Assembly (NCBI GenBank): GCA_022451235.1
Contig: JAKUOA010000004.1
Span: 3,366 to 42,994, forward strand
DNA: 39,629 bases
Direction of reading: 5' to 3'
DNA from: Candidatus Thalassarchaeum sp.
GTDB taxonomy: Archaea; Thermoplasmatota; Poseidoniia; Poseidoniales; Thalassarchaeaceae
Under the pieces are notes generated by a model, which was not told the origin of the DNA, made no database searches, and worked only from the letters and a program-made list of their open reading frames with translations. Both the position numbers and the translations under genes were made by a program. Of the stretch, positions 9,154 through 14,050 are shown one piece after another. The number at the start of each line of letters is the position of its first letter. The first letter of the stretch is position 1.

Positions 9154-9468
9154 TCAACCGAAGAGAGAACCGAGGCCTTCGAAGCCACCGGCTTCATCCT
9201 CTTCTTCTTCTTCAGCTGGTGCTTCTTCAGCAGCAGGAGCAGCGTCTCCACCACCGCCACCAGCAGCAGCTGGAGCAGCAGCGACAGGCGCAGCAACGGC
9301 AGTTGCCATTGCTTCACCGATGTCAACATCGCCGAGGGATGTGACAAGTGCCTTTACTCGGGCACCGTCAACCTCAACACCAGCAGCGCTCAAAACCGAG
9401 CTAACGCCGTCTTCATCGATATCCTTCTCTGCGGAGTGCAGTAACATTGCAGCATATACATATTCCAT
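9154..9468 (-). CDS. rpl12: 50S ribosomal stalk protein P1/L12
   Basis: [11 protein letters not shown] start, Ala/Gly hinge, acidic tail ending GLGSLFG. Confidence 0.97.
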
Positions 9469-9488: not shown

Positions 9489-10514
9489 TCAGCCGAAGAG
9501 GTCGCCGAGTCCATCGAACCCAGCGTCTTCTTCTTCCTCCGCTTCCTCTTCTGCCGAGGCTTCCTCGGCGGATTCTGCTACATCGGAGGTTGCAGCAGGA
9601 GCACTTTCAGCAACGCTAGCAGCAGCACCTAGTGCTGCCGCCAACTCGTCATCAAGCGCTGAGGAATCTAGCTGACCTGCTAGGGCCAGCGCACGTGCGT
9701 TTGCACGTGTAATGAATAGTGGAATCGTGACATCGTTGGTGATGCCTGCTTCCACCGCGACAGATGTTGCCTCACCACTCGCCTTCGCGAGTAGGGTTGG
9801 CATTGTCTGTGAAGAGAACCAGCGAATGTTACAGGCGAGGTTGAATGCGCCTGATGTCGCGGTAATGATATCCGATCGTAATCCATCTGTATCTAGGTCT
9901 AGCGAATCGACTTCGAATAGGAACCCGTCCTCAATCGCTCCGGTTAGGATAATTCCAATTTCAATCGGGTTAATATCCAACTTGGAAAGCATGATTCCAA
10001 GATCTGCTGAAATCGGTTCACCCTTATTGACAACAGTCGTCGTCTTCTGAATGGCAACCTTCCCCTTGTCTATTTTCGCAGGAATTCCAACAGCGTTGAA
10101 CTCACCAACGATTGGACCAGGGCCGAATTCGGTTGGTCCAGCCTCGACTACAATGTCCATTGGCGAAACTTCTCCTTCCTTCGCAGCACGACCTTGTTTT
10201 GTCTTTTCCAGTTCGGAGTATAGTTGGAAGGCATTCATAGAATTAGAATGAACGATAGCAGGTTGTACTGCTCCTTCAAGTAGAGATTCTAGTTCTTCCA
10301 TCGGTCGACCGGTCTGCTCCCAAGCAAGGCGCATCAAGGTCTTCTTTGCCATTGTTATCGATAGGCTACTTCGCAAATCATCACGCATGCTTAGCATATT
10401 CTTGGCAGGAACTCCTCCGATGTCGACAACCCCAAGAACTCCATCTGAGGTCAAGATTGCAGCTAGTTCATCAACACGGCCTCGCTTCCAAGACGCAACC
10501 TTTGGCTGAATCAT
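9489..10514 (-). CDS. rpl10: 50S ribosomal protein L10/P0 (uL10)
   Basis: VASWK, AGPTEFGPGP, GIPAKIDKGKV and acidic tail ending GLGDLFG. Confidence 0.96.
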   Translation of the reverse strand: MIQPKVASWKRGRVDELAAILTSDGVLGVVDIGGVPAKNMLSMRDDLRSSLSITMAKKTLMRLAWEQTGRPMEELESLLEGAVQPAIVHSNSMNAFQLYSELEKTKQGRAAKEGEVSPMDIVVEAGPTEFGPGPIVGEFNAVGIPAKIDKGKVAIQKTTTVVNKGEPISADLGIMLSKLDINPIEIGIILTGAIEDGFLFEVDSLDLDTDGLRSDIITATSGAFNLACNIRWFSSQTMPTLLAKASGEATSVAVEAGITNDVTIPLFITRANARALALAGQLDSSALDDELAAALGAAASVAESAPAATSDVAESAEEASAEEEAEEEEDAGFDGLGDLFG

Positions 10515-11155
10515 TCAATCACCTCGACCTTGATTGAAGGACCCATTGAGGTCTTGATGTAGCAAGAACGGATATTTCCAGTACCGCGCTCTAGTTTTCC
10601 AGTAACACGACTCCAGATTGCCATCGCATTGTTGGTTAAATCGTCGAGACTTTGCTCTCTTGAGCCCATTGGGCTGTGGAAAGTCATATTGTCTCTTGAA
10701 CGAACAATCGTTGTATCCTTCAGACCAGCTGCAACCATTGCGGGGTCAAGAGTAGGGGGAACGGGTCGTGGCATCTTACCACGAGGTCCGAGAACTACAC
10801 CGAGGAATCTACCAACGGTTCCCATGTGTGGTATCTCTGCGAGGAAGAAATCGATACTATTTGCTAACTTACGAGCCTGTTGACGGTTACCGCCTAGGTC
10901 CTCTATAGTTGTAGGGTCGATAATATCGATTCCAGCAGCTCTGGCTTTAGTTGCCATTTCGCCACCAGCGAACATGGCTATCTTGATCGGCTTTCCACGG
11001 CCAGCGGGAAGTCGAATTTCCTCTTGTATACGGTTTGCTGGATTCTTCAAATCGACGTCCTTCAAGTTAAATGAAAACTCGACGGTTTCGATGAACTTAC
11101 GCTCAGGAGCGCTGTTCAAGGCTTCTTCAATTGCTGTTTGGATGTTTTCTCTCAT
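10511..11155 (-). CDS. rpl1: 50S ribosomal protein L1 (uL1)
   Basis: RKFIETVE, LGPRGKMP, KTSMGPS; ATG 11155 is preceded by a GAGGTGA SD. Confidence 0.96.
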   Translation of the reverse strand: MRENIQTAIEEALNSAPERKFIETVEFSFNLKDVDLKNPANRIQEEIRLPAGRGKPIKIAMFAGGEMATKARAAGIDIIDPTTIEDLGGNRQQARKLANSIDFFLAEIPHMGTVGRFLGVVLGPRGKMPRPVPPTLDPAMVAAGLKDTTIVRSRDNMTFHSPMGSREQSLDDLTNNAMAIWSRVTGKLERGTGNIRSCYIKTSMGPSIKVEVIE

Positions 11156-11167
11156 ATTCCTCACCTC

Positions 11168-11196
11168 TGCGGTCAGCGAGGTTTCCCTCTTCCGCA
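11168..11196 (-). promoter_or_regulatory. kink-turn-like GNRA hairpin abutting the rpl1 SD; candidate L1 autoregulatory site
   Basis: mRNA sense UGCGG-AA-GAGG-GAAA-CCUC-GCUGA-CCGCA, followed immediately by GAGGUGA. Confidence 0.5.
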
Positions 11197-11208
11197 ATTC
11201 GTGATTTT

Positions 11209-11487
11209 TCACTCAAAATGTTCGTCGAATCTCCCTTCTTTCATTGCTTGTAATGCGGCCTTTGGCTCCATGCCTTCGACCTTAACTCGCATTGCTACGC
11301 AGGTTCCCATAACCTCGCGCGAGCGCGCGTATAGTGTTGCACCAGTCAAGCGATCTTTCTGCTTCTCAGCAACCTGCTTTACTTGGTCCATTGATAGGTT
11401 CTCAGTGGATGCATCCCAGCTTCCATTACACTTCTTCTGACCGAGGGTCTGAATAATCACATGAGGTGTTTCATTACGTGCTGACAT
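11209..11487 (-). CDS. rpl11: 50S ribosomal protein L11, C-terminal rRNA-binding domain only (92 aa)
   Basis: NLSMDQVKQVAE…REVMGTCVAMRVKVEG…EGRFDEHF matches the archaeal uL11 CTD, and the gene sits at the syntenic position between spt5 and rpl1. There is no GPPLGP N-terminal domain. Confidence 0.85.
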   Translation of the reverse strand: MSARNETPHVIIQTLGQKKCNGSWDASTENLSMDQVKQVAEKQKDRLTGATLYARSREVMGTCVAMRVKVEGMEPKAALQAMKEGRFDEHFE

Positions 11488-11573
11488 GCTCTTTACCCCC
11501 TACTGAAGTGCCTCGCCGACCTACTCTCCCTATTTGAGCGTGATGACGAACCTCCAATTTCTCCTGATTATGA

Positions 11574-12473
11574 TCACTCAACACGCTGAGTAACTCGAAC
11601 TTGATCAGCTCGTACTGTCAGAGCGACTGGTACAGCCGCTTCGAATAGCTCGACCGTAACTTCTTCCTTTGATTCTGTAACACGGATAACACGGGCTGCC
11701 TGACCTTTGAATGCGCCACCGCTGATTTCGATAATACAACCTTCCTCAATACCGGCTGTCGCCGCCTTAGGCTCTAGGTAGGAAAGTGTATTTTCCAGAG
11801 GTGAAACACCAGGTAGAACCTTTCGACAGTTCTTCAAGCGTGTTGTGGTCATTCCAGACATTCCAATTAATTTCTCGACATGGTGAAGTGCAGATGCCTC
11901 GACGAAAATATAGCCGCGTACATGTCCTGGAACCAATACTCCGAAGACTTCGTCTTGAATATCCTTTAGAGAACCAGTACCCGAGAGTCTAGCGCGAATT
12001 TCATTGGCAACATTCTCCTCCTGTCCGATACTGGTCTTTAGGATGTAAAGGAACGTAGCGACGTCTCCATACATGGCGTCAATCTGTGGAATTGAAAATC
12101 TCTCAGCACCAGTACCTTCGCTGGATTCGGATTCATAATGCCCGATGAAGGCAGGGTCAACCCAGCTGTGATTCTTGTAAATGGTTCGCGGACTGACCTC
12201 ATCAGTTTCGCTAATGAATAGCAAAGGAGTCACATCGTTCAGGCGATTTCCAAAGGCAAGACCTCTTGCTAGACCTGAACGGACATGTTGTAAAGCATCA
12301 GCCGGAATACCCGTGCATTCTGTAATTCTGGTTGTTACAGCATCGATATCTTCGGGGTCTCCAATACCGTACACACCATCCCAAGCACCAGGGAAATCAG
12401 CAACCTCGTCGGCACGCTGCATAATCAGGACCTTCTCGCCATGGCGAACGTAGACTACGAATGTATCAGACAT
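11574..12473 (-). CDS. spt5: transcription elongation factor Spt5 (NGN+KOW) with N-terminal Nudix-like domain
   Basis: C-terminal half: KTSIGQEENVA, RGYIFVEA and KOW ISGGAFKGQAARV…EEVTVELFEAAVPV. N-terminal ~140 aa: KVLIMQR…FPGAWDGVYG…ITECTGI. ATG 12473 follows a GAGGTGA SD. Confidence 0.9.
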   Translation of the reverse strand: MSDTFVVYVRHGEKVLIMQRADEVADFPGAWDGVYGIGDPEDIDAVTTRITECTGIPADALQHVRSGLARGLAFGNRLNDVTPLLFISETDEVSPRTIYKNHSWVDPAFIGHYESESSEGTGAERFSIPQIDAMYGDVATFLYILKTSIGQEENVANEIRARLSGTGSLKDIQDEVFGVLVPGHVRGYIFVEASALHHVEKLIGMSGMTTTRLKNCRKVLPGVSPLENTLSYLEPKAATAGIEEGCIIEISGGAFKGQAARVIRVTESKEEVTVELFEAAVPVALTVRADQVRVTQRVE

Positions 12474-12483
12474 ATTTCTCACC

Positions 12484-12750
12484 TCAAGAGCTAGTTAGCC
12501 AATCGAAGAAAACCGGTAGGGCGTTATCCATCAGCCAAAGCATGAAGAAGCCGATAGCACCTAAAACAAACATTCCAATTCCACAGACGATTACGGTTTG
12601 TCGAAATTCTTGTTTGGAGGGTTTTCTAGCCATCTTTAGGATACGAGCCATTGAGCCGGTTTGCACCCGGCGGACTCTCTCCTCTATGTCATCCTGCAAC
12701 CTCTGTGCAGTTTGCTCGATAGGACCAACATCTGAGTTCTCGATAGCCAT
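12484..12750 (-). CDS. secE: protein translocase subunit SecE/Sec61-gamma
   Basis: RILKMARKPSKQEF followed by a single TM helix; syntenic between ftsZ and spt5. Confidence 0.93.
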   Translation of the reverse strand: MAIENSDVGPIEQTAQRLQDDIEERVRRVQTGSMARILKMARKPSKQEFRQTVIVCGIGMFVLGAIGFFMLWLMDNALPVFFDWLTSS

Positions 12751-12853: not shown

Positions 12854-13972
12854 TCAGTTGACAAAATCTACGGTTCTAGTTCGTAGATTTCGCATCTGTG
12901 TATGCAGTGCTGCTCCATGTATTTGGTCGGATTTGACTCCGGTAAGTACCAGCAGCACTCGAATTTCATCTCCCATCGATTGATCAGTAGTAGCTCCCCA
13001 AATGATTCTAGCATACGGGTTGATTCTATCTCGAATCAATTGAGCGCATTTCTCTGCGTCTCCCAACGACAAAGTTGGACCTCCAACTACATTGACAAGA
13101 GCGCCTCTGGCATCCGAGATGTCGATGTCCAATAATGGCGATTCTAACGCCTCGTCGGTAGCCTTCTCGGCAGAATCTTCGCCTCTCGCTTCTCCAAGAC
13201 CAATCATTGCAACTCCACCACCATTTTCCATGACGGATCTTAGATCTTGGAAGTCTAGATTGACAACTCCTTCCTTTGAGATCATCTCTGATACTCCAGC
13301 AATCGATCTCATCAATAATTCATCTGCGACTCTGAAAGCCGCATCCAGTGGTAAGTCACGTACTCCTTCAACTTCCAGCAATCGCTCGTTTGGAAGCACT
13401 ACTACGGTGTCGCAAACTTCGCGCAATCTCTCCAATCCCCACTCGGCATTCTGTCTACGAAGTGCACCTTCGGAGAGGAAGGGGTACGTCACCACAGCAA
13501 TTGTTAGAGCACCTTCTGCTCGGGCCAGACGAGCAATGACGTGAGCCGAACCAGTACCCGTTCCACCTCCCAATCCGGCGGTGATGAAAGCAAGGTCGCA
13601 ATTTTCGACCTCTTTCTTGAGGGCCTTCTCAGATTCGAATGCGGCTTGTTCACCTTTCTCAGGGTCTCCACCCGCACCTCGACCTCTAGCACTTCGACCG
13701 ATGAGTACTTTGTTGTCGACTCCGACTCTTAGCAGGTGTTGTGCGTCGGTATTGATTGCCATTCCACGAACATATTCGCCATCGAACAATCCTTCCATTT
13801 CCAGTCTAGCCACTGTGTTTGAGCCGCAGCCACCACAACCGAATACACGAATTCGTGGTTGTAGTGATTTCAGTAGCGTTTTCAGTTCAGGATCAGTCTC
13901 CGTCACAACCGGCGCAGCCGGTGATTCTTCCCCATCCTGAAGCTCCAATACTCGGTCGATAAGGTGCTTCAT
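12854..13972 (-). CDS. ftsZ: cell division protein FtsZ (FtsZ1-type locus)
   Basis: GCGGCGSN, INTDAQHL, GAGGDPEKG, GLGGGTGTG, VNLDFQD; probable start ATG 13972. Confidence 0.96.
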   Translation of the reverse strand: MKHLIDRVLELQDGEESPAAPVVTETDPELKTLLKSLQPRIRVFGCGGCGSNTVARLEMEGLFDGEYVRGMAINTDAQHLLRVGVDNKVLIGRSARGRGAGGDPEKGEQAAFESEKALKKEVENCDLAFITAGLGGGTGTGSAHVIARLARAEGALTIAVVTYPFLSEGALRRQNAEWGLERLREVCDTVVVLPNERLLEVEGVRDLPLDAAFRVADELLMRSIAGVSEMISKEGVVNLDFQDLRSVMENGGGVAMIGLGEARGEDSAEKATDEALESPLLDIDISDARGALVNVVGGPTLSLGDAEKCAQLIRDRINPYARIIWGATTDQSMGDEIRVLLVLTGVKSDQIHGAALHTQMRNLRTRTVDFVN

Positions 13973-14050
13973 AAGTAACGCTGGCCATCCAAGCAAGGAT
14001 AATGCTTGCCGTAGCCATTGAGCCCTATGGGCTCATTCTGCAACCCCTAA

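Follow-up and report, generated by a model that had tools for sequence, protein, structure and literature searches.

A ribosomal protein uL11 reduced to its RNA-binding domain in the marine archaeal order Poseidoniales

To our knowledge, uL11 (gene rpl11) is a universally conserved ribosomal protein, and its N-terminal domain (NTD) is likewise thought to be universal. In the 39,629-nt stretch of DNA analyzed here (hereafter the window, to whose positions all coordinates refer), which derives from a Marine Group II (MGII) archaeon of the family Thalassarchaeaceae, Candidatus Poseidoniales, the gene that stands in the place of rpl11 encodes only 92 residues. Poseidoniales is a globally abundant marine archaeal order, and the locus raises the question of what became of the missing domain. 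An earlier note on this DNA had placed three readings side by side, namely a lineage whose ribosomes lack the NTD, a split L11 and a paralogue beside a full-length copy. Our analysis supports the first of these on genomic grounds and speaks against the other two. We consider it highly probable that the gene is a single, vertically inherited uL11 orthologue made up of the C-terminal domain (CTD) and tail only, whose NTD disappeared in a single deletion on the stem of the Poseidoniales, exactly at the linker between the domains, and that this domain was neither moved nor split off nor duplicated.

The short gene and its product

The coding sequence occupies positions 11209–11487 of the minus strand, on which the whole gene cluster lies, and comprises an ATG start, 92 codons and a TGA stop. 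The earlier note had described a 92-aa open reading frame (ORF) with a purine-rich Shine-Dalgarno sequence of its own, only 86 bp away from the spt5 stop codon, with no remnant of the GPPLGP motif and with a divergent CTD, and each part of this description was borne out. The sequence GGGGGTAAAGAGC precedes the ATG, and a GGGGG(T) run at 11495–11500, 7 nt before the start codon, presumably serves as the Shine-Dalgarno sequence. The 86 bp that separate uL11 from the stop of spt5 (11488–11573) contain stops in every frame, and the open frame of uL11 continues for just four codons above its ATG. When we translated the three minus-strand frames across 11200–11642, nothing resembling GPPLGP appeared above the ATG, and all three frames were interrupted by stops. 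Because an NTD of ~65 aa requires about 195 bp of coding sequence, the spacer is insufficient to hold one.

The only Pfam match in the 92-aa product is PF00298, the uL11 RNA-binding domain, which aligns with residues 9–70 over positions 7–69 of the 69-position profile and scores 29.3 bits, the cut-off being 21.4. PF03946, the NTD family, is absent from the ORF. The protein is laid out as a linker remnant (residues 1–8), the rRNA-binding domain (residues 9–70) and the archaeal C-terminal tail (residues 71–92), and since the family-defining NTD is missing, we class it as a one-domain variant of uL11, distinct from the canonical two-domain form. Aligned with Pyrococcus furiosus L11P (4v6u_BH, 164 aa), it covers residues 74–159 with an E value of 2e-11; the part that is missing is exactly the NTD and nothing further. 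The same boundary is seen when 76 distinct sequences are aligned: the short forms start at the inter-domain ...GTPP... linker and share their C-terminal tail with 12 full-length L11 proteins of Marine Group III (MGIII). At this point the short form reads MSARNETPHVIIQTLGQKKCNGSW in the window and MPKPWTSKLIIKALGVQKCNGS in the other family, opposite ...GTPPASSLIKQILGIEKGSGEA in the sister lineage. The archaeal extension past the end of the bacterial CTD, which closes with ...G-x-[FYW]-D-x-x-F, is present as well, with residues 71–92 aligning with the tails of the MGIII, P. furiosus, Methanocaldococcus jannaschii and Haloarcula marismortui proteins.

In an AlphaFold2 model built from 47 sequences (mean pLDDT 85.3), the short protein is predicted to adopt the uL11 CTD fold, in which a bundle of three helices is accompanied by a short sheet. 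The top Foldseek match to this model is M. jannaschii L11 as solved in the thiostrepton-bound complex of the P-stalk base (5d8h_C), with a TMq of 0.82 and an rmsd of 2.0 Å over 88 columns, and the best 50 matches are all uL11 chains, including 70-aa C-terminal fragments solved with GTPase-centre RNA. Within this domain, the stretch CVAMRVKVEG places an arginine where the L11 proteins of MGIII, Pyrococcus, Methanocaldococcus and Haloarcula carry the glycine of ...SMG(L/V).... As judged from sequence, the homologous CTD, the archaeal tail, the synteny and the single copy together make the short uL11 an orthologue by descent.

Distribution and conservation in the Poseidoniales

PF03946 returned no match at E ≤ 10 in a six-frame translation of the genome from which the window comes, with a positive control that succeeded in 14 of 14 reference genomes. 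A hidden Markov model (HMM) built from the NTDs of 12 full-length sister-lineage L11 genes, run with --max (filters off) against 25,294 six-frame ORFs of at least 30 aa, reached a best E value of only 0.44, at the level of noise, in an ORF of 30 aa. The corresponding HMM of full-length sister-lineage L11 retrieved only the known short gene, at profile positions 74–156, and PF00298 matched the genome once. In these searches, we find neither a split gene nor a second uL11 copy.

The same picture extends to the relatives. Of 41 Poseidoniales genomes (our own included), none contains PF03946 above the cut-off, and 39 contain PF00298 above it, once each, in open frames of 92–143 aa; second PF00298 matches in two genomes, G002 and G030, have E values of 0.027 and 0.19 and fall below the cut-off. 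PF03946 is absent from genomes assembled into one contig, both in our own genus (G023) and in the other large family (G026). At the level of the class, PF03946 occurs in neither of the large families of Poseidoniales (0/40 and 0/65 genomes, 0/105 together) and in 38/43 and 2/2 genomes of the sister families (40/45), whose L11 open frames are at least 130 aa long. A survey of the phylum, covering Thermoplasmatota genomes at least 85% complete, found the domain in 0/24 and 0/50 Poseidoniales genomes (0/74) as opposed to 219 of 226 other Thermoplasmatota. The third Poseidoniales family, which is probably the deep-sea 'MGIIc' of PMC10480650, also lacks PF03946 (0/2) and has short forms of 85 and 90 aa. 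None of the 120 database relatives listed carries the domain.

Four weak PF03946 matches in relatives (E 0.37–0.62) were rejected. Both of those that we inspected fall within a gene of 279–298 aa, outside its reading frame; the other two are those in L004 and L005.

Searching with the protein itself retrieved 51 loci at 62–98% identity, on contigs assigned to Marine Group II, Ca. Poseidoniales, Thalassarchaeaceae or Thalassarchaeum, together with one weak bacterial match at 34%. In all, we compared 81 loci in relatives, where uL11 is 92 aa long in 66 cases, 93 aa in 13, and 85 and 90 aa in one each, and where 80 genes start with ATG and one with GTG. The spacer between spt5 and uL11 measures 61–108 bp in the 71 of these loci in which spt5 could be placed. 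With the short form present at this locus in all 81 cases, its recurrence is well beyond what chance would produce. The annotation of these relatives is split between 'hypothetical protein' at NCBI and 'ribosomal protein L11' at JGI.

The short gene also appears to be maintained by selection. Among 67 distinct nucleotide sequences, the ratio of nonsynonymous to synonymous substitution rates (dN/dS; Nei-Gojobori, NG86) has a median of 0.080, a mean of 0.12 and a maximum of 0.53, as calculated from the 353 of 2,211 pairs with a dS of 0.1–1.5. This ratio, whose calculation the earlier note had proposed, indicates at the sequence level that the short uL11 gene is under strong purifying selection. 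Upstream of the gene, we aligned 120 bp from 64 distinct loci of all three families (MGIIa, MGIIb and the third family) and found the columns T.A.ATA..G.......GTCG kept at ≥90%. These comprise a TATA-like box, TCAAATAGGG in the window (11528–11537, about −50 to −41 from the uL11 ATG) and TTAAATAGGGG or TTATATAGGGG in other loci, followed by a conserved GTCGGCG (11514–11520). A Shine-Dalgarno-like run of GGAG, GGGG or GGAGG occupies the same place throughout the aligned regions. Judged against the archaeal TATA consensus, the TATA-like box and the GTCG motif are probably the promoter of a uL11-uL1-P0-P1 operon. Rfam at its gathering threshold identified no family in the window, and hence no known RNA leader in the spacer.

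The earlier note had also raised the prospect that reads would reveal a collapsed deletion at this locus or that close relatives would carry a full-length rpl11. Neither is the case. Contigs of an independent DNA run, X14, which was not flagged as a possible source, cover 10900–11426 and 11397–12365 with 0 and 1 differences, respectively, and are free of indels and joints across the junction. No insertion, deletion or joint at the locus was reported in contigs from four sequencing runs, and relatives within the order carry the short rpl11 at the same place.

An independent count in print points the same way. Of the 455 Poseidoniales metagenome-assembled genomes (MAGs) in Table S5 of PMC10877094, 2 are listed with the CheckM marker PF03946 and 347 with PF00298; the count is uncommented, and the main text of that paper makes no mention of L11. 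Its Table S4 places arCOG04372 (L11) among tip-level gain and loss events within Poseidoniaceae, which we take as annotation noise. The main texts searched neither describe a natural uL11 that lacks the NTD throughout a lineage nor discuss L11 in Marine Group II; supplements other than that of PMC10877094 may hold similar lines. The uncommented marker count is the sole published trace among them.

The GTPase-associated centre and the competing explanations

uL11 is the only altered component of the GTPase-associated centre. In the 23S rRNA of the same genome (contig 13), the loops of H43 and H44 (GCUUAGAAGCAGCC and GUAACAG) match the Rfam archaeal consensus exactly. Two MGIIb and two MGIIa genomes have the same loops, and those of a sister genome that retains the NTD (G063) are near-identical. 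A search of the 23S loci for the bacterial-type H44 loop motif found none, and the archaeal loop, GUAACAG, was located through the Rfam alignment. The stalk proteins are likewise conserved: P0 retains its N-terminal and insertion domains, and both P0 and P1 retain the C-terminal GF(D/E)GLG(D/S)LFG.

One pair in the H44 stem is U-A, as opposed to G-C in the Rfam archaeal consensus (UUCGUAACAGAUCA versus UGCGUAACAGCUCA; 23S, L099 about 2650–2665). It is unlinked to the loss of the NTD, since the NTD-bearing sister genome has the same pair.

Among the factors that act at this site, aEF2 shows differences confined to the order. An alignment of its C-terminal 249 aa from 19 genomes revealed a 2-aa insertion together with MGII-only substitutions in domain V, and the mean identity to outgroups is only slightly lower for MGII (49.2%) than for MGIII (53.0%). 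These changes may hint at co-evolution with the altered stalk base. Domain V reads AETFGFSNDIRAASQGRAVWN in MGII and AEMFGFA..IRSAT.GRALWS in other Thermoplasmatota; in our genome, the region lies on contig 3 (L111:1081–1827). The same aEF2 gene contains ambiguous bases at L111 about 950–975, giving X residues in its translation.

A mechanism consistent with these data would begin with one deletion on the Poseidoniales stem that removed the NTD exactly at the inter-domain linker. In the GTPase-associated centre, next to P0, the short uL11 would still bind the H43/H44 RNA and stabilize it, and the P0/P1 stalk would bring in the translation factors. With the uL11 flap gone, aEF2, aEF1A, aIF5B and aRF1/ABCE1 would then dock on the P0/P1 stalk and on the rRNA, at H43/H44 and the sarcin-ricin loop, and the thiostrepton/micrococcin cleft would be left without its protein half. 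The loss may have been neutral or tolerated in slow-growing oligotrophs, or it may have been selected.

Comparison with known systems shows both what is kept and what is new. With the canonical archaeal uL11 of P. furiosus (L11P, 4v6u), M. jannaschii (5col and 5d8h) and MGIII (156 aa), the Poseidoniales form shares the CTD, the tail, the position after spt5 and the single copy; it differs in lacking PF03946, a domain of ~65 aa whose GPPLGP helix makes contact with elongation factors. In MGIII, the full-length L11 gene, whose start overlaps with the stop of spt5, is not followed by L1, whereas the Poseidoniales uL11 has a promoter-like box of its own. Titles of PDB entries state that the uL11 CTD binds H43/H44. 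The closest structural counterparts are the laboratory C-terminal fragments of L11 (the 70-aa chains 1hc8_B, 1mms_B and 1s72_I), which are similar in size and fold (TMt 0.81–0.82) and which, because entry titles describe them as solved with GTPase-centre RNA, indicate that the CTD alone is able to bind its target. Those fragments are engineered or partly modeled from full-length genes, whereas the Poseidoniales form is natural, under selection, found across the order and equipped with the archaeal tail.

Ribosomes with a deficient or mutated uL11 offer a functional comparison. According to PMC9122527, the GPLG helix of the NTD contacts the translocase, yeast mutants of this motif carry out poly-Phe synthesis at 9–32%, and yeast lacking both uL11 genes (the rpl12a/b double deletion) is viable and slow, so that life is possible at a cost in growth and translation. 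The stalk base and L11 also touch eRF1 in termination and pre-recycling complexes, according to PMC6813808. For thiopeptide-resistant bacterial mutants, PMC5960728 identifies the NTD as the protein part of the thiopeptide site, in which the compounds sit between the NTD prolines, on which they stack, and A1067/A1095 of H43/H44. All of these mutants are laboratory strains of reduced fitness, whereas in Poseidoniales the NTD-less state is fixed at 81 of 81 loci and the CTD is under purifying selection.

Several points weigh against a single loss with retained function, or limit how far it carries. The CTD is divergent, with 29–43 bits to PF00298 (40–43 in relatives within the order) versus about 61 in MGIII, and it contains two residues invariant across the order that set it apart from canonical archaeal uL11: Cys20 (KCNG versus KGSG elsewhere; about 11428–11430) and Arg67, which replaces the glycine of ...SMG... 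(about 11287–11289). Given this divergence and these two residues, RNA binding by the short uL11 is not assured. Two of the 41 genomes of the order, G006 (73% complete) and G029 (94% complete), have no PF00298 match at all, and the two PF03946-positive MAGs among the 455 of PMC10877094 Table S5 would be exceptions within the order. Our own genome is metagenome-assembled (1.48 Mb in 31 contigs, of which contig 26 carries the window) with an estimated completeness of 88.26%, which makes the absence of the NTD from it weak evidence when taken alone; the case rests on many relatives. The HMM searches leave room for an NTD that may have diverged beyond recognition or for a replacement that may be non-homologous, and we infer from sequence where the protein begins, that the short uL11 is present in ribosomes and that no substitute exists. 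The intervals 11381–11565, 11401–11506 and 11222–11478 are covered by contigs from three metatranscriptome libraries, which shows that the locus is present in RNA libraries and falls short of proving that it is transcribed. The RNA-library contigs of run X15 have a higher depth over uL11, a figure that is unusable for ranking expression, and gaps in the coverage by RNA runs carry no meaning.

One proposal that is compatible with a single deletion, and that we regard as doubtful, is that the loss was of adaptive value: it would have done away with the protein half of the cleft bound by thiopeptides (thiostrepton, micrococcin and nosiheptide) and so conferred intrinsic insensitivity to such compounds from marine bacteria. 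Resistance would be available at lower cost through point mutations, and the loss is explained just as well by drift in slow-growing oligotrophs. In favor of the proposal stand the position of these compounds on the NTD prolines, described above, and the title of entry 5d8h, according to which an archaeal uL11-RNA-P0 complex binds thiostrepton. Moreover, since the loops equivalent to A1067 and A1095 are unchanged, the uL11 protein is the sole altered part of the thiopeptide site. A more far-reaching version strikes us as equally tentative: a naturally minimal GTPase-associated centre, with H43/H44 held by nothing more than a remodeled CTD (invariant Arg67 and Cys20), and co-evolved factors, hinted at in domains IV–V of aEF2, in which the loss was selected as removal of the thiopeptide pocket and the order is intrinsically insensitive.

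It is improbable, in our estimation, that the function of the NTD persists unrecognized, either in a diverged NTD encoded elsewhere, as in a split gene, or in an unrelated Poseidoniales protein or domain beside H43/H44 and P0. Such a protein may lie beyond the reach of sequence searches, and the same cluster does contain another lineage-specific novelty, the Nudix-fold domain fused to Spt5 (see below), to which the MGII-only substitutions in domain V of aEF2 can be added. Because mutation of the yeast GPLG motif lowers poly-Phe synthesis to the extent given above (PMC9122527), some compensation would be expected; because uL11 as a whole is dispensable for yeast viability in the same paper, a replacement is not required. 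Against a persisting function, NTD-like sequence is absent from the genome at E ≤ 10 with Pfam and at any E value better than 0.44 with the sister-order HMM, closed genomes are negative too, none of the 105 class-level Poseidoniales genomes contains the domain, and no candidate replacement has been identified.

An artefact or decay, whether a collapsed assembly, a mis-called start or an rpl11 pseudogene, has an exceedingly small chance of being correct. It can draw on the origin of the window in a 31-contig, 88%-complete MAG and on the 'hypothetical protein' labels of relatives at NCBI; it is countered by the 85–93-aa form at 81 loci, one-contig genomes included, by the independent DNA run without indel or joint, by a frame open for just four codons above the ATG and by the dN/dS of 0.08 together with the conserved promoter-like and Shine-Dalgarno motifs. 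A CTD-only paralogue in competition with a full-length uL11 from another locus is just as hard to credit, having nothing more than the incompleteness of our genome in its favor, given one PF00298 match per genome above the cut-off, no PF03946 in any Poseidoniales genome searched and a gene in the canonical spt5-uL11-uL1-P0-P1 position.

If the NTD was indeed lost once on the Poseidoniales stem, the order constitutes a natural experiment on the role of this domain in translation of the archaeal and eukaryotic type, bearing on factor recruitment, fidelity and the stalk-base contacts made in termination and recycling. The loss would also predict insensitivity to thiopeptides. There is in addition a practical consequence, as PF03946 is one of the 43 phylogenetic markers of CheckM (PMC7024585). 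Because this marker is systematically missing, completeness estimates and marker trees for Poseidoniales are biased.

Table S5 of PMC10877094 lists further CheckM markers that occur in only 0–4 of the 455 Poseidoniales MAGs: PF03684, TIGR02237, PF02649, TIGR00422, PF01849 and PF09249, and also PF13685, TIGR03677, TIGR00162, PF01287 and TIGR00537. Losses of a domain like the one described here, or strong divergence, may lie behind some of these absences.

Neighboring genes and the N-terminal domain of Spt5

The cluster reads ftsZ-secE-spt5-uL11-uL1-P0-P1, in which uL11 occupies its canonical position. It opens with ftsZ (12854–13996), followed by secE (12484–12750; PF00584, 26.6 bits), which lies upstream of spt5 (11574–12482), the upstream neighbor of uL11. 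Directly downstream of uL11 is uL1 (10511–11212; PF00687, 149.3 bits), and then come the stalk proteins uL10/P0 (9489–10514), with PF00466 and PF17777, the latter corresponding to the insertion (EXT) domain, and the C-terminal motif GFDGLGDLFG, and P1, the archaeal L12 (9154–9468), whose ORF translation ends in the canonical C-terminal motif. We take the ORF at 9154–9468 to be P1 from its position in the cluster and from this C-terminal motif.

The start of uL1 is ambiguous. A GTG at 11212 would overlap the uL11 stop by 4 nt, and an ATG at 11155 is preceded by GAGGTGAGG. The ATG is more likely to be the start than the GTG; the N-terminus that it yields, MRENIQTAIEEAL..., presumably resembles that of a typical archaeal L1.

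The Spt5 protein combines NGN and KOW domains with an additional, order-specific N-terminal domain of ~130 aa. PF03439 and KOW are found at residues 145–278, Pfam gives no match at E ≤ 10 for residues 1–144, and the C-terminal half of an AlphaFold2 model matches archaeal Spt5 in Foldseek. Residues 1–130 (about 12093–12482) are predicted to form a Nudix fold, with matches to the NudI-type 3n77_A (E 1.7e-7) and to MutT (3grn_B, rmsd 3.0). The Nudix box has the consensus REUxEExGU, and because the box in Spt5 looks degenerate by eye (RITECTGI), the domain may be non-catalytic. It is conserved in 39 aligned Poseidoniales sequences from all three families, and the 187-aa Spt5 of MGIII is without it.

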